Position numbers and translations under genes: made by a program. A stretch of DNA of 64,000 nt from the NCBI GenBank assembly GCA_963514005.1, contig OY740827.1:2418001-2482000 (forward strand), written 5' to 3'. This DNA comes from Raja brachyura (lineage: Eukaryota). Under the pieces are notes generated by a model. It was not told the DNA's origin, searched no databases, and was given only the letters and a program-made list of their open reading frames with translations. This document shows, in pieces, positions 4,410-45,760 of this stretch. Each line of letters begins with the position of its first letter. Position 1 is the first letter of the stretch.

Positions 4410-5479
4410 CTGCAGATTAACAAATTCATATGATCATGCAATGGATGAATTTATTTTATTACTGGTTGTGTCAACAGATTGTCGCAACTGGGAATCGTCA
4501 TACATGGTTCAATCATCATTTTTAGCATCAATGGGAACCATGACTGTGTAGGCCAATTTGACACCACCAAAATGCCTTTGGCAGCGTCTTGCGCTATTTT
4601 CTTGAGACATTGCCCAATCAGAGAGAATGAGAGAAAAACATAAAAGAATGTTTTACCCCAGTGTAGCGAGAAAGCATCCACCGCTACTGCCCCTGGATCG
4701 TGTTCCCAAGACACGTATTTGGGCAATTGGCGATTCAATCTAGATGCAAACAGATCAATGTCCGGCACTCCATACCGACTGACTATATTTTTGAAATTTT
4801 TGGATTAACATCCATTCTGTATTGTCTTCAAATATTTGTGATCTTTTGTCTGCCACAACATTGTCTCTCCCTGGGAGATAAATAGCTGACAGCCAAATAT
4901 TTTTACCAATACACCATTGCCACATCGGATTTACCAGTTGATCACATGATATTGATATTACACCACCCATGTGATTGATATAAGCCAAAGCTGTGGTATT
5001 GTCTATTTGAATTTGGACATGCAAATCCTTTAAAGTAGAACAATAAGCTTTTAATCCATAAAATGCTCCCAGTAGCTCCAAATAATTAATACCATATGTT
5101 TGGAGCAATAAATCCTCTTGGACAGTCCATCTGCCCCCACATCTGGTTTGCAAAAACACTACTGGCTGCTGAACTAAAATGTTCTTAGCAGCTTGTGGAA
5201 CATTCTCAATCCACCAATGCAATTCTGACAAGGCTTCCTTTGGCAATTGCATAGGCCTATCAAAATGGCCTGCTCGCTGTAAAAGCGCTTGAGTTTTTGC
5301 CCTTTGAAGATTTTGGTAATGTAGTGGACCAAATTCTACTGCTGGAAATGCTGCTACCAATTTCCCAATAATCTTAGCAACTTCTCGGATGGAGGGATAA
5401 GGTTTGTTAATCAGGCTCTGACACAAATTTGTCAAATCAATCACCTTTTCCATTGGTAAAGTTACCAACATGGTAACTG

Positions 5480-6607
5480 TTCGGAGTCGCGGCGCTGCTT
5501 GTCAGCTGTGGCTCACCTGCAGTCCGTCTGTCTTTTATTTTATTTTTGTCCTCGTCCCTGTTTTTGGTGTTTATTTTTGGTTTGTCGGGTTGTGTATGTA
5601 TGTGGGGGGGGGGGGAGGGGGGGAGAAACGGGGTTTTAGTCTCTCCCTTCGGGGGGATGCGACTTTTCCTGTCGTGTCCCCCGACATCGTCTCCGTCTGT
5701 GCTGAGGCCCTGGTGAGGGCCTTCCAGCTTCCGGCGGCGGCGGCACGGCCTTCAGAGCTTCAGCGGCGACCTGGCTTCCGGCGGCGGCCTGGGCTTCGGG
5801 AGCTGCGGTGCTCCAGCGGCGGCCTGGGCTTCGGGAGCTGCGGTGCTCCAGCGGCGGCCTGGGCTTCGGGAGCTGCAGTGCTCCAGCGGCGGCCTGGCCC
5901 CCTCTGAGCTGCGGTGCTCCAGCGGCGGCCTGGGCTTTGGGAGCTGCGGTGCTCCAGCGGCGGCTTGGGTGTCGGGAGCTGCGGTGCTCCAGCGACGGCC
6001 TGGGTGTCGGGAGCTGCGGTGCTCCAGCGGCGGCCTGGGTGTCGGGAGCTGCGGTGCTCCAGCGGCGGCCTGGGTGTCGGGAGCTGCGGTGCTCCAACGG
6101 CGGCTTGGGTGTCGGGAGCTGCGGTGCTCCAGCGGCGGCCTGGGTTTCGGCAGCTGCGGTGCTCCAGCGGCGGCCTGGCTTTCGGGAGCTGCGGTGCTCC
6201 AGCGGCGGCCTGGATTTCGGCAGCTGCGGTGCTCCAGCGGCGGCCTGGCTTTCGGGAGCTGCGGTGCTCCAGCGGCGGCCTGGCTTTCGGGAGCTGCGGT
6301 GCTCCAGCGATGTTCCGGCGGCGGGCCCTGTGGCGGTGTTCCGGCGTTCCGGCGTTAGCGGCGGCCTGGATCCCCTCAGCGCAGAGGGAGAATAAGGAGG
6401 GGAGAAAAGACTGAGATCCTAAGACTTTTGCCTTCCACCACAGTGAGGAGGTGTTTGGTGCGCTCACTGTGGTGGATGTTAGTTTTGTGTTTATTGTGTG
6501 GTATTGTATTGTTGTTTTTTATATATGTATGACTGCAGGCACGAAATTTCGTTCAAACCGAAAGGTCTGAATGACAATAAAGGTATTCAATTCAATTCAA
6601 TTCAATC
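5480..6607 (+). mobile_element. Non-autonomous retroelement (SINE-like) with Rex1-type 3' tail and internal minisatellite
   Basis: Absent from the paralogous DIRS copy C. Flanked by AACTG (5475-5479, 6608-6612). The 3' end AAATTTCGTTCA...TGAATGACAATAAAG(TTCAA)n matches the tail of the Rex1 at 48930-49000. Confidence 0.75.
5780..6310. repeat. 35-bp GC-rich minisatellite (about 15 units)
   Basis: Unit GGGAGCTGCGGTGCTCCAGCGGCGGCCTGGGCTTC with period 35 (5798, 5833, ...). Confidence 0.95.
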
Positions 6608-10747: not shown

Positions 10748-11700
10748 ACTTCCGGTGGCGCCATGATATCTTAACAGACGCTGCACATCGCTCCACTCCC
10801 TAAAATTCGCGTTTTTTCACGTTAAAACCGGGTCTACAGGTCGGGACCAATTAAAAAATCTTATCGGAGCCTCTGCTCGACTTGCTGATAACATCATCAG
10901 TAACAGCTGTGAATTTAACAGAGGCTTAAACCACTTTAAATGAAAACTTCTTCTCTGGGTAAGAGCACTCAGAGGACAGTTACAAAAACTCTCCAGGGGA
11001 AGCCAGCCAAAGCCTGCAGATTTATTTTGAAGCAGCTTCCGAAGGAAAGGTGCTTTTCGATATGGCTACAAGATTAAAAGCAGATTTGGCCAAGGACAAA
11101 GAATTTGAAGAATTAAAGCTTTCAGTAAGTGAACTGAAAGATGTAAAGGTGGATGGAAAAAAGATGGAACACATGATGGGAGTGATGATGGAAAAGATAG
11201 AAAAGCTAACGCTAAATATGACTTCTTGTAATCAGAATGTTATTGAGTCTGTGAAGGATTGGATTGGCACTATTAATAAACGGATTGACGATGAGAGAGA
11301 TGAACTATCGGAGAGAATTGATAAGGGTGAAGAAGACACCACAAAGAGGTTCGGCGCTGTGCTGGACACTGTATCAACCTGTATGTTAACAATGCACGAG
11401 ATGGAGGATGAGAAGGCAAGAATGGTGGAGGAGATGAAGAAGGTGAGGTCAGAACAAGACTTTGCTACACGACAGATGGCGACTCAGCTGGCTAAAGTTT
11501 CAGACAAATGTCTGGACCTCAAGGCTCGTTCAAGACATCGTAACCTAAGATTAGTTGGTGTACCAGAGGGAGCCGAGAGAGATAACACTTGCTAGTTCGT
11601 TGCGGGATTAATTAAAGAGGCTCTTAAGCTCCCTAAACTACCAAAAATTGAAGGAGCACACCGGGTTCCTGGATACACAAATCTCAGGATGGCTCAGAAC
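10748..11700 (+). mobile_element. L1-clade LINE 5' end with ORF1 (3'-truncated)
   Basis: Starts GACTTCCGGTGGCGCCATG. Coiled-coil ORF (11050-11595) leads into CLDLKARSRHRNLRLVGVPEGAE and, after a stop, IEGAHRV, which are Transposase_22/L1 ORF1 motifs. Confidence 0.85.
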
Positions 11701-11705
11701 GTACA

Positions 11706-13425
11706 CGACAGGTCATCTAAATCCTTGACCTGCTTCGGGAGGTCTTCTCCGAATAGCTGTCTGGGTGGTGGTGTTGGGGGTGCTCTGCATAGCCCCGCAA
11801 ATTTGGGGTTTAATGTAGGCTTGATGATGCTTTTCCGAAACGCATTTATCTCATATTGAGTGTTGCATAGCAGTGCCAGAGCATCCTCCTGTTCGGTGTT
11901 CAAGTCCACACCATCCACCGACCTCGCAAAAGCGGTAATCCCAGATGTGAGCAGTTTCAGGATTCTTTGTAACTTCACTTCCTGTGCTGTAATGCCCGGG
12001 CTAATATTGCCCCAAATAGGCATGTTCACAATAGGCACATTGAGCGAGTTACAATTACTCGGTGCCTTGTGTCTGTTCATGGCCTCCGCAAGGACCTGCT
12101 CCTGTAGCTGATGGTTGGTGAGGAAATCAATGGTAGCGGCCAGTTTGGTATTGAGGGGTTGTCCCGATGATTCGGGTAATGCAAACTTGGCTGCCACGTC
12201 CAGGAGTTCCTCCTGAGGGACCTCAGGTGCTACTGGTGCGTGAACCAAGATCTCCTCTTCTTCTGGCTGCCTCATGCTATCCATTGATGATGGGGATATA
12301 TCCATGAGTCCCCTGGAACTGAATGTTTCCCGCCTTTGATTTTGCTGCAGGATCTGTTCCATTATCCTCTCCATCCAATCAATGCGCCCTTCGTCGTGCG
12401 TGAATGGGCGGTCAGAGTCCTCATGCCCAAAGGAACTTCTGAGGCTCCTGTCATCGGCCCGTACCTCGTCGAGGTAATCTCGGTGCCGTGACGAAAAGTC
12501 GCTGCCAGCCGCCTCAGCGAAACTGAACGACTCCCGCGCGGATCTGCTCATACGCCTCCTTTTGGCTGAGCTAGGCCCGGCTGCCTCTAAGGGCATATGC
12601 GGTGTGAAGTCGGCACCCAATGCCGCAGCGTGGTGACCCGACATCCGCGCGGGCTTGCCGACTGTCCTTTTCCTGGACCCAGACGACGTACGGTCCCGTC
12701 CTGCCGCCAAAGGGGGATGCGGTGACCGTGGCGAGACTCCACCTGTGTGACTCCTCCTGGTCCAACTAGGTGGTGAGTCTACACTGGCCCTCCCTGGTCT
12801 GCCAGTGGACTAGGGTCTCGCTAATTCACCAGTCCGCAATCTTGCGGCCTCTGGTGAAACCTCTGCCCGAAAAGGGCTAGGTTGTCGAGCTCTATCCCTG
12901 GCTCTTCCACAAGGGCTCAGGGAGAAGGGCCGTGCAGCAGCACGTGAAACCCGTTTGCTCGCATCAGCCAACGATCCTGTTGGCGATAATGAAATGGAGT
13001 CAGGGTCTACCTGCTCCGGCGCCGTACCGACTTCCTGCTCTGCGGGAACCCCGCTTGTGCTCAGCTGTGTCGGTGGGTTGAGTCCTGTGAACACAGGGCT
13101 CCCCGATTTACGCGCCTTTTTCCCGGCCTGTCTAGCGGGTGCTGTCGTTGAAGAGAGCTCCGGGATTGGCGGCCGGTGACCCCGTACGGACGTCCTGCGG
13201 CCCGTACTCCTCTTATCCATGTCCCTGTTGGAGAGAAAAAATACTCAAAACAGCAGGGACAACCAACTCAAGGTTGTCTGTACTTAGCTGAGTGGCCCTT
13301 ATGAAGGGCTGGTGGTGAGCCGCGCTCCACCTCCAGCCATCGACTGCAAATGCGAGCGATGATATGTCGCGCATGCGTGCTGGCGGGTTCTTCACGAAGT
13401 CACTCACGTGACTCCAAAATGAAAT
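11706..13425 (-). mobile_element. DIRS segment B1: left ITR plus gag (3' part lost)
   Basis: Left terminus at 13360-13425 matches copy D. Gag ORFs 12810-13220 and 11694-12710 are in one frame, separated by a single TAG, and share LCNTQYEIN...LNPKFAGLC...LFGEDLPKQVKDLD with D. Confidence 0.9.
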
Positions 13426-15573
13426 TAACCTTACTCCCGGCACTGGGAATTAATCATCTAGAAATGCTGGGAGCATTTCATGGACTCCGGGCTTACTGTT
13501 CAGACATGCACCATCTGCATGTATGCTTACAAATTGATAATACCACCGTGGTGGCTTATATCAATCATATGGGTGGAATTAAGTCGATATCTTGTGATGA
13601 ATTGGTCAATACAATCTGGCACTGGTGCTTAGAAAAGAACATTTGGATATCAGCCACTTACCTTCCGGGTAAGCTGAATACAGTGGCGGACACCAGGTCA
13701 CGCAAGTTTAACGACAACACCGAATGGATGTTGGACCGCAAAGTGGTTGCCGATATTGTAGATCGGTATGGAACACCAGATATCGACCTTTTTGCATCCA
13801 GACTTAACCACCAAATGTTGCATGGGAACCAGACCCTGGGGCAGTAGCGATGGATGCTTTCTCGCTACACTGGGGGGATTTGTTTTTCTATGAATTTCCC
13901 CCCTTCTGCCTCATCAGTCGGGTCTTGCAGAAAATTCAACAAGACTCCGCATCGGGTATTCTGGTTGTGCCCGACTGGCCTACTCAGCCATGGTTCCCTG
14001 TGATACTGGACATGGTCCCAGAACCATGCATTCCAATACCCAAACGTCCGGGATTACTGGTACATCCTGTGACTGGGGAGAGTCACCCATGCCATGACCG
14101 GATTAACCTATTGATTTGCAGGGTTTGAAAAGGCCACTCCTGGAATTTGGATTTTCGGACCGAACAATGAATATCATCACGGCATCATGCAGGGAGTCCA
14201 CCAGGAGACAATACCTCACTTACGTCAAGAAATGGGAGGTGTTTTGTACCAAGACAAACACCACATATGACACAGCCACCATTACGGAAGTGCTGGAGTT
14301 CCTGGCGAGCCTTCAACTTGATGAAGGTTTAAGCTACAGTGCCATCAACTGTGCCAGGAGTGCCCTATCCTCATATCTCGGACTAGGTTTAGATGAGGGG
14401 AATTTTAAAGTAAAATTAAAATTTTAAATTTATGAGGGGAATTTTAAAGTAAAATCCCCCCAGGCCTAGATATTCCCAGACCTGGGATATTGGCATTGTG
14501 CTAACCATGCTCCGAGGGTGGGCACCAGTAACGTCTCTTTCCCTAGCCAAATTGACATACAAAATGGTCATGCTGATGGCACTTGGGATGGCGCAACGGG
14601 TCCTGTCCCTACACAAGCTAAGTATGGACGCCATGGTTATAATCAACAATAAGGTAACTTTCTTCATTCAGGGGTTACTGAAACAAGACAGGCCTGGATC
14701 ATCTGGCCACAAGGATTTCCTGGCCTACCCCGTAGACAGCCGCCTATGCATAGTGACCCACCTTTTACACTACATGGAGGTCACCAAGTGTCTCAGGGGC
14801 ACGGAAAGGGCTCTGCTTATAAGTCACAAACGGCCTCATCACGGAGTCACCGTGCAATCTATTTCAAGATGGCTAAGGGTGGTATTGGGTGCAGCGGGGG
14901 TGGACACTGATCTTTTAAAATCTCACTCCACCAGGGCTACATCTACATCATCGGCAATGATGATGGAAGTTCCTTTGGATCACATCCTTGCAACGGCGGG
15001 TTGGGCTAATGAAAAAACCTTTCAGCGGTTCTTTAATAAACCCGTGGCCGCACCTGAGACGTTTACAGACACAATTTTAAGTTCTGTATTACAATTTCCC
15101 CCAAGTAGGGGTATTATTATTGTTATTTGTTAAATAAATACCCTCTTGTTTTTCAGCACAGTTTCATGTCTGAAATACGTTAACATACTTCCTCCATTTG
15201 TCATTGTGGCAGTGTGTGAGCATGGACTCGTTCCAGGGCATGAAATCACAGAGCTTTGAAATCTTCACGTAGTCACTCACTTGTCTCCGAAGTAAAATAG
15301 TAAGATTAAATGAGAACTTACCAGTTTGAAGTTTGATCTTTATTTTATGAGGAGTTACGATGAGGGATTACGTGCCCTCCGCTCCCAAACCCTCTATTAT
15401 AAAGGTCAACTGGTATATGGTTTCTCTTAATCTTACTATGTTAGTCACCTCTGGTATCTGTGATATCACACCACTGCTTTGAAGAATGTCGCGGGGTCTT
15501 CATGTAATCCGTAACTCCTCATAAAATAAAGATCAAACTTCAAACTGGTAAGTTCTCACTGAATCTTACTATT
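13423..15573 (+). mobile_element. DIRS segment B2: RNaseH, MT-like, YR, ICR and right ITR (5' part lost)
   Basis: INHLEML/DNTTVV, DLFAS...FPPF, and YR with HSTR/AGW motifs (14116-15133, broken by a short duplication near 14390-14450). ICR at about 15262-15374; right end at 15573. Confidence 0.92.
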
Positions 15574-36875: not shown

Positions 36876-39094
36876 ACACCACTATTTTTCACATTGTATA
36901 TGAATGATTGGGACGTGAGGATTGAAGGCTTTGTGATCAAGTTTGCGAATGACACGGAAATAGGTGGAGGGGCAGGTAGTGTAGCGAAAGCAGGGATTCT
37001 GCGGAAGGACTTGGACAGGTTGGGAGAGTGGACAGGGACATGGCAGATGGAATATACTGCAGCAAAGGAGGGAGTGATGCATCTTTTACAAAAATTAATT
37101 AAGCAATTATTACAAGAATAATATATACAATACAAAACAATACCTAACAGAACCCACCACCATAATACAAAGCACAACTATTCTTAAATATTAAATATAC
37201 TGAGTATTAAATAACTGTGTTACAACCCCCATTGAGTAAGACTTCCAGCCCACGCGGTGCCCAACTGTCCTGAAAATCCTGCAGGGTGCCCGTAGTCCCT
37301 CTCTAACACCACCCGGGCACAGACATAACCCTGGAATAGAGGCAGGCAGCCGACTCGGGCAAAGCCCTCTTCCGCCTGGCACCATGACTCGCGGATGGCC
37401 AGCTTGGCCTCGCCCAGGAGCAACCCAACCAGGACATCTTCGGCCCTACCCTCTCCCCAATGCACAGGGTGTCCAAAGATGAGGATGGTGGGTGTGAATT
37501 TCAGCCAGAAGGCAAGGAGCAGCCCCTTTAGTTGTTGGAACAGGGGCTGCAGCCTCACACACTCCATATGCACGTGGAACAGACTCTTCCAGCCCACAAA
37601 AATAGTGAGATTAAACGAGAACTTACCAGTTCGAAGTTTGATCTTTATTTTATGAGGAGTTACGATGAGGGATTACGTGAAGAAGACCCCGCCTGGCGCT
37701 GGAACGGCATACTTCAAAGCAGCGGCATGAAAAACACAGAAACCAATAGCCGAAGTAAAATAGTAAGGCTCAAAATAGACTAGAACTACCAGATGATCAT
37801 TTACATTATGAGGGTTGGGAGTGGAGGGCACGTAATCCCTCATCGTAACTCCTCATAAAATAAAGATCAAACTTCGAACTGGTAAGTTCTCGTTTAATCT
37901 CACTATTTTACTTCGGAGTCACGTGAGTGACTACGTGAAGATTTTGAAGCTCTGTGTTTTTCATGTCGTAAATTCATTTCATACGACTCTCTGTTTAGTC
38001 AAAACAGTAGTGAGTAAATAGTATTTTAGGACATTGTTACAATTTATGTAATAAGTCCTTTAATCATAAAAAGAACAACTTTTTAATAATAACCCCTCTA
38101 TCTTAGGGGAAAATTACAAAATAAATTGATAAATGTTGTCAATGGTAACATAAATCAATAATATAAATCGATAATATAAAACAAAGCAAGCATTAAAGAG
38201 AACCCATTACTGTGTGTCTAAATCCTGGCACTGTGACAACAGGTTTATTCTAGAACTTTGAAAATCTCTTCTCTAGACCACCCTGCGGCCTCTAAAATTT
38301 TATCGAGTGGCACGTCCTGTACCTTTGCCACGGACGTAGCTGCCGCCCTAGTGGAGTGAGATTTAAACACATCAGTGTCTATTCTTGCTAGACACAAACC
38401 ATCCAGAAATGGTTTGAACTGAACCTTTTGTATGTGGCTTTTTGTGTGTTATTAATAACGCTTTCTCAGAACCTCTGAGATTTTGGTTACCTCAATGTAC
38501 TGAGTTAAATGCTTAACCACACACAATGTTTCATCAATAGGATATGCTTTAAACATTACCTTCATTCCAGTTCTTCCTGGTCTGCTTTGTTTGATCAAGT
38601 CATAAACATAAAACATAATGTTATCTGCAGTCACATGCATGCAATCCAACCGTACAACTGCAAAGCTTGTACTCTTTTTGAGCTGATACCAATGCCATTA
38701 ACTTTACCACCTTGAATGTTAATTTCTGCAAAGACATTGAATTAATTGGAGTCCATTGTTTAAACAAAGTGAGAACAATGCTAACATCCCAAATTCCTGT
38801 ATATATGGGCTTGGGATGATTTTATTGAAATTCCTTTCATGAGTCGGGATACTAATGGGTGAGACCCAATGAATCTCGATCTGAAATTTGTCCTAAATAG
38901 GATGACAATGCACTACGAGCACAATTTTACTTCGGAGTCACGTGAGTGACTACGTGAAGACCCCGCCAGCACGCATGCGCGACATATCGTCGTGCGCATG
39001 TGGAAGCGACGGTCGGGAGGAGCGGGGCTCCTCCAGCGTGAGTTTTAAAAAGCTCACGCCAGGTAAGTCTCACCGAAGGAGTGAGTCGACCATT

Positions 39095-40300
39095 ATGGAA
39101 GGGAGAAAATCAAAGAGAGCGGCGGCCAAATCAGCGGCTAAGGACAGCAGCCAACGGAGAACCGCCTCTCCAGAGCTACAGGTTCTACCTGCAGCTCCCG
39201 ACTTTTCGGACTTTGAGACCGTTGGTACGCCACGGTCGGGGAAAACTATCCGGAAGTCGGCCGGGGCCGACTCAGCGGAGTCCGGTCCCGAGGGCACCCC
39301 GCTCGCTGGCAGCGACGGAGGTCGCCTTGACCGCATTGAGCGGATGATGGAGCAGCTGCTTCAACGTGACCTGCTAAAGCAGGGGCAGGATCACAGTGGG
39401 ACCCCTAGTAGGCCCACGGCAAGTTCCTTTCGAGGACTGCCTAATGTATCCCCTTCTATACAGGGGAGCATTGAGGGTCAGAACTGGGCTGACCCAGAAG
39501 AAGGGGAGTTGGCTGAAGCACCTGCAGCGTCAGGGGTGTGTGAAGATTATATGGATGTGGTGAGCAAACATGCCATGCCCAACCAGAAGGGCCTACCCAT
39601 CCACCCCAAGCTGGCTGCCAGCATTGATTATATGGCCACTAACCAACTTCAGGAACAGGCCATCAATGCCACAGCAGATAAATATATGGCGCCAGAAAAC
39701 TGCAAGTCATTAAATGTACCCGCGGTGAACAACCCGATATGGGGAAACATGAGCCCCTCGAGTAGAGGGCAGGAGATGAAACTTCAGAAGATCCTGAAGC
39801 TCCTTACCGCAGGGATTACTGCAGTAGCCAGAACAGCAGTGGGAGTGGACATGCCGGAAGAACTACAAGATGCTTTGGCCTTACTGTGCAACACACAGTA
39901 TGAAATAAATAATTTCAGGAAAAGCATTATAAAGCCGGCGCTTAACCCCAAGTTCGCGGGGTTGTGTAAGCCTGGGAAGACACAGCCTCCAAGCCTGCTA
40001 TTTGGGGAAGATCTCCCCAAACAAGTTAAAGATCTTGACGAGGAGGCTAAGGCTTTGGGCCTTATTAAAGTACCTGGGTACACTAAGCCTCATCACCCAC
40101 ACAGAACGCACCCCTACGCACCCACCGGGCAGAGTTACCCTAACAGGTCTGCCGGTGGTGAAAGCTCGAAGGCCGGCATACCTGCACAGCGGTCTTTTTT
40201 AGGCCAAGGCCCAGGCCGGCCTCCTTGGAAGATGCGCCACTCCCAGAACACCTACAACCAGCCGAGGAAGCAAGGGCAGAAACCACCACACCGGCAGTAA
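39095..40300 (+). CDS. DIRS gag-like protein (ORF1)
   Basis: Open frame from 38942 with likely start MEGRK at 39095; homologous to the B1, A and C gag remnants. Confidence 0.85.
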   Translation: MEGRKSKRAAAKSAAKDSSQRRTASPELQVLPAAPDFSDFETVGTPRSGKTIRKSAGADSAESGPEGTPLAGSDGGRLDRIERMMEQLLQRDLLKQGQDHSGTPSRPTASSFRGLPNVSPSIQGSIEGQNWADPEEGELAEAPAASGVCEDYMDVVSKHAMPNQKGLPIHPKLAASIDYMATNQLQEQAINATADKYMAPENCKSLNVPAVNNPIWGNMSPSSRGQEMKLQKILKLLTAGITAVARTAVGVDMPEELQDALALLCNTQYEINNFRKSIIKPALNPKFAGLCKPGKTQPPSLLFGEDLPKQVKDLDEEAKALGLIKVPGYTKPHHPHRTHPYAPTGQSYPNRSAGGESSKAGIPAQRSFLGQGPGRPPWKMRHSQNTYNQPRKQGQKPPHRQ

Positions 40301-40302
40301 CC

Positions 40303-42221
40303 ATGGAGGTAGGTGGGTCTGGGATCCCCAAGAACACTACTGGCCCAAATTCACTCTGCATAGGGGGCAGGTTGCACATGTTCCTCGAGAGTTGGCTCAC
40401 TTTTACCTCTGATCCTTATATACTCAGGAGTATTCAGGGCTACAAAATTGAATTTATTCACGAACTCCCTACCCCGGTACAGCATGCGCCTAGTCGGAAA
40501 TTCGTCCTTTCTCATAGAGATAAGGCAGCAGGGCATGCTGAACTACAGAGGTTAATAGAAAAAGGGGTAATTGAAAAGGCCTTTAAAGAACCTCAGGAGT
40601 TCGTGTCTAATATATTCACTAAAAACAAAAAAGATGGCGGGTGCCGCATCATCATAGATTTGACCGACCTGAATACTTCTGTCCAGTATATTCATTTTAA
40701 AATGGACACCTTCGACACTGCTACTCAGCTTGTAGCCAATAGGTACTACATGGCATGCGTTGACCTTAAAGATGCATACTATTCAGTACCCATACACAAG
40801 GATCATAGGAAATACTTAAAATTTATCTGGATGGGACAATTATGGCAATATAAAGCTTTGCCTAATGGGCTATCGTCAGCACCCAGATTGTTTACCAAGA
40901 TATTGAAACCAGCTTTGGCCTATTTAAGGAAACAGAATCATACTGTTATGGCCTATCTTGATGACATCCTCATAGTGGGGGAGAATTTGGAAATGGCTAC
41001 TTTGGCAGTCACAGCCACGAAACATATTTTTCAGATACTGGGGTTTACGATACATCCAGATAAATCAATATTGGAACCCTCTACCACCATGAAATATTTG
41101 GGGTTCATTATTGACTCAGTGCAAATGTCTGTCACGTTACCACCAAGCAAGGTGGAAGACCTGATAGAGGCTTGCAGGAGCCTCTTTGGCATTAAGGTCC
41201 CATCCATTCGGCAGGTGGCCAGGGTGATTGGGAAGATAGTAGCTGCATTTCCTGCAGCACAATATGGGCCCTTACATTACCAAAATTTACAAAGAGCAAA
41301 AATCATGCTGGCCATTTTGATAGGCCCATGAAAATTCCAGAAAAGGCAAAAGCTGAACTATATTGGTGGATGGGTAATGCCCAAAATTGTTCCAAACCCA
41401 TGACTATCGCCAATCCCTCGATCACCTTACAAACGGATGCCAGTGCCAAAGGGTGGGGAGCTACTAACACTACCTCTAGCTGTGGAGGTAGATGGAGTGC
41501 ACCAGAGTTAACCCTATTTAATAACTTAGGGATTAACTATTCAGAAATGCTGGCAGCATTTCACGGACTTAAAGCATACTGCACTAACATGCACAAAGTT
41601 CATGTTAGACTACAGATTGACAACACCACGGTGGTAGCCTATATTAACCACATGGGCGGTGTAAAGTCGATATCGTGTGATGAATTGGCCAACAATATCT
41701 GGCACTGGTGTCTGCAAAGAGGAATTTGGATCTCTGCAACTTACCTACCAGGTAAACTAAACACAGTGGCAGACACCAGATCACGGAAATTCAACGACAA
41801 CATAGAATGGATGTTGGATCGGAAAGTGTTTACAGATATTGTAGAACGTTATGGGACACCAGATATCGACCTTTTCGCGTCCAGGCTAAATCACCAACTA
41901 CCAACGTATGTTGCTTGGGAGCCAGACCCGGGGGCGGTAGCGATGGATGCTTTCTCGCTACACTGGGGGGATTTGTTTTTCTACGCTTTCCCCCCTTTCT
42001 GCCTCATCAGTCGGGTCTTGCAAAAAATCAGGCAAGACTCCGCATCGGGTATCTTGGTAGTGCCCGACTGGCCTACTCAACCATGGTTCCCTCTGGTACA
42101 AAAGATGGCCACAGAACCCTGTGTCAGGGTGAATAAAAGACCAAGCCTGCTTGTTCATCCTGTTACAGGAGAAAGTCATCCATGTCATGATCGTATGGAT
42201 TTGTTAATTTGCAGACTTTAA
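40303..42221 (+). pseudogene. DIRS RT - RNaseH - adenine-methyltransferase-like ORF2 with one frameshift near 41305
   Basis: DLKDAYYS, LPNGLSSAPR, YLDD, TDAS..GWG, DNTT, DLFAS and AFPPF motifs. ORFs 40225-41331 and 41328-42221 are separated by a deletion of about 16 nt relative to copy A. Confidence 0.92.
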
Positions 42222-43192
42222 AACGGCCACTTCATGGACTCGGACTCTCCAACAGGACCATTGATACTATCACGGGAGCCTGCAGAGAGTCCACAAGGAA
42301 GCAGTACTTGACCTACATCAGGAAGTGGGAAAGATTCTGCGTGACTACTAAAACTACATACGAAACCGCCACCATCACGGAAGTGCTGGAGTTTCTGGCT
42401 ACCCTTCATTACGATGAGGGTTTAAGCTACAGCGCCATTAACTGTGCCAGGAGTGCCCTATCGTCTTACTTGGGCAAGGGGAGTGACCAATTGGGAATTG
42501 GGTCACATCCCCTGGTATCCAAATTTATGCGGGGAATATTTAATTCTAATCCCCCCAGGCCCAGATATAGCCATACCTGGGACATCAGCACGGTATTGAC
42601 GATGCTGCGAGGATGGACACCGAACACGGGACTCCCTTTGGCCAAATTAACCTACAAAATGGTCATGATAATGGCACTGATCACGGCGCAACGGGTCCAG
42701 TCCCTGCACAAACTCAGTCTGGATGCCATGGCAATTACCAGTGGGAAGATCACATTCCAGGTGCAGGGACTATTGAAGCAAGATCGACCCGGAGTGTCTG
42801 GACATACTTTGGAGTTCCTGGGTTACCCAGCGGACACTCGTCTTTGTATCGTTACATTGATTCTGCGATACATTTCAGTCACTAAAGATCTAAGGGGCAC
42901 GGAAACAGCTTTGCTTGTCAGTCACAAGAAGCCTCATCACAGGGTCACGGTGCAAACCATTTCCAGATGGTTAAGGGTGGTACTGGATGCGGCGGGGGTG
43001 GATACTAATGTGTATAAATCTCACTCCACCAGGGCAGCATCCACCTCGGCGGCTAGAAGGATGGAGGTACCACTGGATCACATCCTGGCCACAGCGGGTT
43101 GGAACAATGAGAGAACCTTCCACCGCTTTTATAACAAACCCGTGACCTCCCCTGACAATTATGCAGGGAGGATCTTAAGTGCTGCCAGTTAA
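42209..43192 (+). CDS. DIRS tyrosine recombinase (ORF3), intact frame
   Basis: Catalytic set R (AQRVQS), K (LKQ), HxxR (HSTR), W (AGW), Y (RFY). No ATG until codon 107. Confidence 0.93.
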   Translation: MQTLKRPLHGLGLSNRTIDTITGACRESTRKQYLTYIRKWERFCVTTKTTYETATITEVLEFLATLHYDEGLSYSAINCARSALSSYLGKGSDQLGIGSHPLVSKFMRGIFNSNPPRPRYSHTWDISTVLTMLRGWTPNTGLPLAKLTYKMVMIMALITAQRVQSLHKLSLDAMAITSGKITFQVQGLLKQDRPGVSGHTLEFLGYPADTRLCIVTLILRYISVTKDLRGTETALLVSHKKPHHRVTVQTISRWLRVVLDAAGVDTNVYKSHSTRAASTSAARRMEVPLDHILATAGWNNERTFHRFYNKPVTSPDNYAGRILSAAS

Positions 43193-45760
43193 ATAACCCT
43201 TTTGGGACACAATATTGTGTTTGGTATGAATAAATACCTGTTTTGTTTTTCAGCCAGTGTCTTGTCTGAATCACGTCCATCCTCTTATCCCAGCTTTAGC
43301 GGTGTGTGAGCATGGAGCTTCCAGGGCATGAAATCACAGAGCTTTGAAATCTTCACGTAGTCACTCACGTGACTCCGAAGTAAAATAGTAAGATTAAACG
43401 AGAACTTACCAGTTTGAAGTTTGATCTTTATTTTATGAGGTGTCACGATGAGGGATTACGTGCCCTCCGCTCCCGACCCTCTATTATAAAGATCACCTGG
43501 TATGAAAGTTCTCTTTTTTCTCTTACTATGTCAGTCATTGTGACTGTTTGTTCTGTGATTTCACACCACTGCTTTGAAGAATGTCGCGCATGCGTGCTGG
43601 CGGGGTCTTCACGTAATCCCTCATCGTGACACCTCATAAAATAAAGATCAAACTTCAAACTGGTAAGTTCTCGTTTAATCTTACTATTAATGGCACTATA
43701 CTCAAATGCTCATCAAGTGTAACCCAGCAAGGAACTGTAATACATTTGAAATGTTTGCAGTATGATAAGATATCTTTGACTGTGTACACTTCCCATTTCC
43801 TTATATGCGACTTATATTGTTTTAGTGCTATTCCTCCAAGCTGCAACTATAACATCCATGGTCCTGTCCGACAGTACAAACTCTTGCAATGGTCTGGTCA
43901 GAACCTGCAGATTAACAAATACATATGATCATGCAATGGATGAATTCCTTTTGTTACTGGTTGTGTCAACAGATTGTCGCAACTGGGAATTGTCATACAT
44001 GGTTCAATAATCATATTAGCATCAATGGGAATCATGACTGCGTGGGCCAATCTGACACCACCAAAATTGCATTCGACAGCGTCTTGCGCTTTTTATTGAG
44101 ACATTGCCCAATGAGACAGAATGGGGAAAATCATAAAATAACAAATTCCCCAGTGTAGCGAGAAAACATCCACCGCTACTGCCGCTGGATCGTGTTCCCC
44201 AAGACACGTATTTGAGCAATTGGTGATTCAATCTAGATGCAAACAGATCAATGTCCGGCACTCCATACCGACTGACAATATTTTGAAATTGTGTGGATTA
44301 AACATCCATTCTGTATTGTCTTCAAATATTTGTGATCTTTATCTGTCACAACATTGTCTCTCCCCGAGAGATAAATAGCTGAAAGCCAAATATTTTTTGC
44401 CATACACCATTGGCACATCTGGTTTACCAGATGATCACATGATATTGATCTAACACCACCCATGTGATTAATATATGCCACAGCTGTGGTATAATCTATT
44501 TGTACTTGGACATGCAAATCCTTTAATGAAGGGCAATAAGCTTTTAATACATAAAATGCTACCAAGAGCTCCAAATAATTAATACCATATGTTTGGAACA
44601 ATAAATCCTCTTGGACAGCCCATCTGCCTCTACAGCTGGTCTCATTATCCGTACCCCCCCCCCCCCCATCCGAGAGAACTTCGTCATTTTGCAAAAACAC
44701 TACTGGCTGATGAACTAAAAGTTCTAAGCAGCTTATGGAACATTCTCAATCCATCAATGTAATTCTGATAAAACTTCCTTAGGCAATTGCATTGGCCTAT
44801 CAAATGGCTTGCTCGCTGAATAAGCGCTTGAGTTTTTGCCCTTTGAAGATTTTGGTAATGTAGACGACCAAACTCTACCGTCTGGTGAATGCTGCTGCCA
44901 ATTTACCAATAATCTTGGCAACCTCTCGGATGGAGGGATAAGGTTTGTAAATCAGGTCTTGACACACATTTGTCAAATCCAACACTTATCCATTGGTAAA
45001 GTTACCAACATGGTAACTGAGTTAATCTCAAACCCCAGATATTCAATGGTTTGGGATTGCTGTAACTTAGATTTGTTGGATGGATCAGGAACCCAACTTC
45101 TCAAACAACTTGTAGTTACTGACTAATTTTCCACCTGGCTCCTGATTAGCATTGACAATTAAATGTCATCTAGATAAGCCATAACGATGTACTTTTGTGC
45201 CTAAGGCAGTGCAAATGCTGGCTTAATCCTTAAAGGCAAAGCTTGTAGTACCACAAACTGTCTCATCCATAACTTAATTACCTATGAAATTATGGTGAAT
45301 TGGGACCGAAATATGCATCTCTTCAATTTATTGCAGCCATAACCACCTGTTGATACCTGCTGTATTGCAGTGTTGAATGTGTCCATTTTAAAATTTTTTA
45401 CTGGACAATATATTTAATTGTGTGAGATCTAACATGATTGTACAACCCCATCTTCTATGGCCTGGGGAAAATATTTGATACAATTGTTGTGGATCCTTTA
45501 CCTGTTTCTCAATACCTCCTTCCTCACACAAATTCTCACATCTTTGTCAATTTGAATTATTCCAAGACTATAACATGAAGAATGATCAGGTTATTGTGTC
45601 CCAATGGATCCATACCTCTTCATTATCAACATTTGGAGTCTACCACCAATCTGAGGTTCATCCAAACATCCTTCTTAAATAGGATTAAGTTTTGTACCTC
45701 CCCAACTGTTTGACGAAATTACCTCCTTACCCAAAAATGTGGGTGTACATTCGTTATTTT

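Follow-up and report, generated by a model that had tools for sequence, protein, structure and literature searches.

We favor, on balance, a reading in which animal DIRS1-like retrotransposons use a two-switch code, in which a −1 frameshift at the end of gag and a splice that removes pol let a single transcript yield Gag, Gag-Pol and Gag-recombinase; the acceptor would move in phase within MT codons, and the spliced RNA could found pol-less families. We arrived at it from a DIRS1-like element in the window, a 64,000-nucleotide stretch of Raja brachyura DNA (contig OY740827.1, positions 2,418,001 to 2,482,000), and from relatives of that element. Judged from sequence, the splice removing pol (40309-42214) is very likely real, and its combination with a −1 frameshift to give a fusion of Gag to the tyrosine recombinase (YR) is likely. 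The original prediction of an intron here is supported by conservation of donor and acceptor, by pol-less copies and by RefSeq gene models.

In the proposed scheme, the spliceosome would join a donor just past the gag stop to an acceptor just before YR, removing all of the RT, RNase H and MT coding region, and ribosomes would slip −1 at a heptamer near the gag end. Left unspliced, the RNA would be translated into Gag and, when ribosomes slip, Gag-Pol; once spliced, it would yield Gag and, through that same slip, a Gag-linker-YR protein of about 730 aa, which for the window copy is predicted by hand count to comprise about 369 Gag, 36 linker and 325 YR residues. Where gag and pol share one frame, splicing would suffice to produce Gag-YR. 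The Gag-YR fusion is the common denominator across family types, and fusion to Gag may carry YR into the particle.

Anatomy of the element and its family

The element lies on the forward strand at 38927-43688, with boundaries taken from empty-site contigs of runs X1, X7 and X2, in which position 38926 (…ATT) is joined directly to the right flank. Because the empty-site allele occurs in contigs of three runs, the insertion at 38926/43689 is polymorphic or species-specific. The same contigs show trinucleotide integration without target duplication. Inverted repeats I1-I3 supply the ITRs as well as an internal complementary region (ICR) complementary to both termini, and the element encodes RT and a YR that overlaps pol. 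Its features are as follows (a slash marks a splice position).

38921-38985 (+): left terminus with ITR; inverted repeats I2 and I3
39060-39068 (+): leader donor CAG/GTAAGT, a perfect consensus match 32 nt before the gag ATG
39095-40300 (+): gag-like ORF1, 401 aa, with homologous ORFs in relatives
40162-40308 (+): pol-frame linker retained in the predicted spliced RNA; contains TAA-CC-ATG at 40298-40305
40195-40201 (+): T TTT TTA slippery heptamer in the gag frame, the predicted −1 frameshift site
40306-40314 (+): predicted 5′ splice donor GAG/GTAGGT, phase 0, within ACC ATGGAG/GTAGGT at 40303-40314
40309-42214 (+): predicted 1906-nt intron, the part of pol that codes for RT, RNase H and MT
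41989-42004 (+): MT motif FPPF-C, site of the relatives' common upstream acceptor, here TG and not AG
42201-42214 (+): predicted 3′ splice acceptor TTGTTAATTTGCAG, phase 0 to YR
42215-43192 (+): YR exon, 325 aa (Phage_int_SAM_4, E 3.3e-7; Phage_integrase, E 4.4e-6)
43350-43462 (+): ICR; I1 and I3
43581-43688 (+): right ITR with extension; I1 and I2

Pfam identified RVT_1 in pol (E 1.6e-20) and gave no match for the gag-like ORF1; the MT region matched Dam below the cut-off (E 0.025) and is homologous to relatives annotated PF05869. The pol frame is open from 40162, that is, from upstream of the ATG at 40303. The window copy carries a private frame break near 41.3 kb that is seen in none of 30 sister loci; pol is continuous in 23 of those 30, and most scored copies of the family have a 691-codon pol frame. 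The family is young and high-copy, with 3063 candidate copies and all 40 scored matches 100% identical over 301 nt. No relative was found in viral contigs.

Other DIRS sequence occurs in the same window. A family-A-like RNase H/MT fragment adjoins the element at 44248-44745 (−), and the family A region includes a GC-rich tandem array (5422-6518) with ORFs open in several frames. At 11694-13420 (−) the 5′ part of another DIRS subfamily stands head to head with an MT-YR part (B2). A donor-like site and, immediately ahead of an ATG, a strong acceptor (T-rich tract, CAG) in the leader of this 5′ part suggest a 5′-UTR intron.

Donor and acceptor across families

The comparison set held 103 loci, made up of 80 metagenome loci (the best 80 of 421), 20 loci of this genome and three window copies, and fell into 50 families at 75% YR identity. 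The pol start was usable in 34 families and the MT end in 47, the remaining families being truncated or broken. Judged by named homologues, the hosts of the metagenome loci are probably marine invertebrates. The families are related by descent, so P values overstate their independence.

The claim of a phase-0 donor at 40309, directly after ACC ATG GAG, checks out in both coordinates and phase. Donors were scored by a crude 7-point count against the consensus. Of the sites in the 150 nt ahead of the RT GGRL-like motif, the top-scoring one fell in pol phase 0 for 26 of 34 families (phase 1 in seven, phase 2 in one), compared with 58 of 170 control windows inside RT; scores of 6 or more out of 7 were reached by 15 of 34 families and by 3 of 170 control windows. 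The window family is logged as phase 1 in this count, owing to a tie with a second donor-like GT at 40313 (phase 1), 4 nt past 40309 and equal in score. The donor, a U2-type GT near AG/GTRAGT that is kept beyond coding need, encodes E/Q-V-S within a linker that shows no other conservation, and it follows the gag stop by 8-47 nt in 23 of the 24 families of frameshift type; L082 is an exception with a weak donor.

At the other end, TTGTTAATTTGCAG ends at 42214 with its AG at 42213-42214, the interval from 40309 measures 1906 nt and the next base begins a YR codon, all as predicted; the phase-0 TGCAG also recurs, as had been noted, at 14121 (B2) and at 4410 on the minus strand (family A). Most relatives lack an AG at the window's acceptor position. 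Their usual acceptor lies about 72 codons upstream, at the Ser after FPPF, which is encoded by AGY in 28 of 32 families, compared with 144 of 653 other pol Ser codons. Both types have the form of a U2-type YAG acceptor with a pyrimidine tract, which scores 13-16 of 17 at the upstream type and a weak 9 of 17 in the window copy, where the CAG is the conserved part. Over MT, the YR frame stays open for 60 codons or more in 32 of the 47 families, which is the case at none of 115 control points. In 14 families the last YR-frame stop is TAG, and in all 14 that TAG is the best acceptor.

Families without the FPPF AG have an acceptor four codons on (six families), about 45 codons on (two) or of the window type (ten), the YR frame in these ten being closed 5-33 codons upstream. 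All ten users of the window-type acceptor read TGC plus AGR, so the synonymous variants that the original prediction named as evidence against itself are not common there. At the same position in the 37 families with other acceptors, TGT accounts for 14 of 31 Cys codons, and Arg occurs in ten, seven of them as CGN. In a FastTree phylogeny of YR the window-type acceptor forms one clade (support 0.96), indicating one origin, and the other shifted types fall at about three and two places. Predicted acceptors shift among sites within the MT coding region, staying in phase 0 with the YR frame open; as exceptions, L069 and L105 have no clear acceptor, and in L050 the upstream AG is followed by a stop. 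If the two-switch reading is true, an acceptor written in MT codons and moved repeatedly in phase explains the long-noted overlap of YR and pol.

These codon choices bear on the alternative that there is no functional splice, with the signals arising as by-products of coding for V-S, C-R and FPPF-S, the pol-less copies as deletions, and YR being made from an internal ATG or the near-cognate TTG at 42209 on a subgenomic RNA, or by a pol-to-YR frameshift. In keeping with this account, 36 of 47 families have a YR-frame ATG no later than codon +22, a sister subfamily has a 7-nt microhomology (see below), and a frameshift into YR has been proposed for Ngaro (Poulter and Butler 2015, as quoted in a passage of PMC13003380). 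We nevertheless regard it as improbable, because neither the AGY preference nor the invariant TGC-AGR is a protein need and because the donor keeps its phase and strength in a linker otherwise free to vary. Moreover, 11 of 47 families, the window's included, lack an early ATG, and the ATG positions vary; two independent pol-less lineages are joined at the same sites; and the 30-nt MT/YR overlap has, by eye, no slippery heptamer.

It was correctly noted that the window's YR lacks an ATG ahead of its N-terminal domain: the SAM-like domain spans residues 31-93 of the ORF, and the first in-frame ATG, at 42527, lies beyond it, at codon 105 past the acceptor (107 in the earlier numbering). Upstream, at 42182-42190, a YR-frame ATG is closed directly by a stop (ATG TCA TGA), and in the related proteins P0151 and P0153 the matching ATG is open into YR. 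The 'M-L-Q' starts of database YR proteins were set aside as possible GTG or TTG starts from prokaryotic gene finders.

Pol-less copies and Gag-YR gene models

Among 63 database proteins of at least 400 aa, three contain Gag and YR without RT, two of them joined at the predicted sites and the third off-site. In the first, RefSeq XP_072015819.1 (Amphiura), Gag ending in KGE switches at the FPPF-S acceptor to the YR frame, and unspliced relatives read GEVS at the join; in the second, XP_071502116.1 (Diadema), Gag is followed by a pol-frame linker and then by YR at the window-type acceptor. Both joins were read from protein sequence, and gene models can invent joins, as in P0011, P0038, P0133 and P0139, which join pol to YR elsewhere, and P0159, a Gag-YR join off-site. 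Separately, the DIRS relatives P0124-P0127, P0228, P0230, P0253 and P0280 have a YR frame open for 460-1150 residues over pol, and in P0126 (1482 aa) Gag appears by eye to run straight into the YR frame, which would make Gag-YR without any splice.

When the Diadema protein was used as query against this genome, in a search that favors in-frame joins, ten loci with Gag beside YR were obtained. The join lies at the homologous splice sites in 8 of 12 loci fetched, and seven of these eight belong to one pol-less family of at least 40 copies, with an identical junction in 30 of 30. This family lacks exactly the predicted interval and encodes Gag-linker-YR as one 730-aa frame, kept in full in 2 of 30 copies. 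Its relatives carry AAG/GTAAGG and TTGCAG/G (7 of 8) about 1.9 kb apart, with predicted introns of 1908-1917 nt in 6 of 8. The copies (L139, L141-L146 and L151-L180) are 96-98% identical and retain the ICR and right ITR. An independent single pol-less copy, L147, is related to L127 and has an overlap of AG/GT at least.

In the sister subfamily closest to the pol-less family, pol is dead and the acceptor reads TGAAG/GT in 26 of 30 copies, repeating 7 nt of the donor; a microhomology or template-switch deletion can therefore explain the pol-less family. In-frame repeats of this size number 4 to 15 within 150-300 nt. The sister subfamily (L198 and L202-L242, at least 40 copies), in which gag and linker form one frame, the donor is mostly kept and the acceptor is AAG, is a non-autonomous lineage. 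For the window's own family, exact pattern matching, run without a positive control, returned no pol-less copy, and the expected 374-aa frame occurs in none of 150 scored copies. Among the 15 joints listed from contigs of four runs, none links 40308 to 42215; these contigs include genomic flanks and so do not bear on splicing.

Several candidates for spliced copies were rejected: the long-frame outliers L131-L138, in which pol is present in 8 of 8; L140 and L148, which are deletions at non-splice sites; and L149 and L150, which are not Gag-YR joins. Also rejected was the idea that the pol-less family's short T run is a frameshift fixed after intron loss, since the pol-bearing sister subfamily has the run in 11 of 11 loci, so that it predates pol loss or is independent of it.

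Predicted frameshifting, start codons and known systems

Pol lies at −1 to gag in 24 families, 23 of which have an in-frame slippery heptamer, TTTTTTA in 17 cases. The window's heptamer has the X XXY YYZ form in the 0 frame, and the −1 frame is open beyond it. The fold downstream is not significant in the window (z 0.19), so we infer the slip itself; among the families, z is below −1.5 in 10 of 29, counting stem-loops only. Families L121, L123, L127 and L129 carry gag and pol as a single frame yet retain the two splice sites, and family A, which is in frame, retains PF(L/I)G but not the T run.

The conserved slippery site would give access to pol, and this weakens the original designation of the ATG at 40303 as the RT start codon. 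Just 2 of the 24 families of frameshift type (the window family and its sister L111/L117), and one further family, L193, have an ATG placed after the gag stop and ahead of the donor. It could still be argued that the splice is real and that both YR and RT start at this ATG by re-initiation, giving a free 327-aa recombinase: the gag stop lies two bases upstream (TAA-CC-ATG), the ATG has A at −3 and G at +4, and the L111 and L193 families of this genome share the arrangement. We think this unlikely, given the rarity of the ATG and its absence from the relatives L118, L126 and L148, which keep both splice sites. Families that bear the ATG keep the slippery site as well, and those with gag and pol in frame would yield Gag-YR directly.

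The original prediction also likened the splice to that of retroviral env, with one start codon switched between two ORFs. The likeness does not hold: the conserved donor lies after gag, so the gag ATG remains first on the spliced RNA, and we found neither a conserved donor upstream of gag nor a start codon belonging to the spliced ORF. In a truly env-like splice, the leader donor at 39063 would pair with the YR acceptor, and both gag and pol would be lost. The perfect CAG/GTAAGT ahead of the gag ATG, with similar sites in L127 and L129, speaks for such a splice, but strong leader donors are not conserved, occurring in 5 of 20 families and 3 of 20 control windows. The leader ATGs at 38975 and 38998 are by hand count in phases 1 and 2, so a leader splice would give no full YR, and we consider it very improbable.

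The frameshift-plus-splice reading that we prefer concerns an element whose layout is familiar. As described in the passages covered of PMC3266345, PMC9210276 and PMC7192593, DIRS1-like elements likewise have gag, pol (RT/RH/MT), an overlapping YR ORF, ITRs and an ICR, and the overlap is described there without an expression route. In the text available, 'splic' and 'intron' have no match in PMC3266345 and 'splic' and 'frameshift' none in PMC9210276, and the splice passages of PMC7192593 concern an engineered marker. The literature searched also included parts of PMC5633606, PMC6681497, PMC9940879, PMC9341512, PMC4495291 and bioRxiv 10.64898/2026.05.21.726589; in the portions covered, we found no explanation of how the third DIRS ORF is translated or why it overlaps pol. 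No description of splicing of DIRS pol was found in the portions covered, and a prior mention elsewhere is possible. The element is of a known kind, and its expression scheme is apparently undescribed.

DIRS elements are abundant in fish, amphibians and invertebrates. If the scheme is true, a Gag-recombinase fusion is the predicted integration enzyme, the annotation of YR start sites is corrected, dozens of families share a frameshift-plus-splice scheme with exact coordinates, and an origin is offered for pol-less non-autonomous families.

Retroviruses and Ty3/gypsy elements make Gag-Pol by −1 frameshifting at U UUU UUA. The window element has the same heptamer in the gag frame with pol open at −1; here, however, one slip would serve either a Pol or a YR C-terminus, chosen by splicing, and the hairpin is not significant. 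Retroviral env and foamy-virus pol are downstream ORFs reached by splicing genomic RNA, whereas here the donor lies after gag, gag is kept and YR would need no start codon of its own. In Ty1/Copia and BARE, the spliced RNA makes Gag alone. Spliced subgenomic RNAs of those elements (PMC5580714, PMC3735527) likewise set a protein ratio from one genomic RNA, but the spliced RNA of the DIRS1-like element would make the integration enzyme. In Ngaro, as far as the parts of PMC13003380 and PMC3783388 covered go, the YR ORF similarly begins within the last part of pol, in the −1 frame relative to it; a pol-to-YR frameshift has been proposed there (Poulter and Butler 2015, quoted in PMC13003380), whereas the evidence for the elements described here favors a splice.
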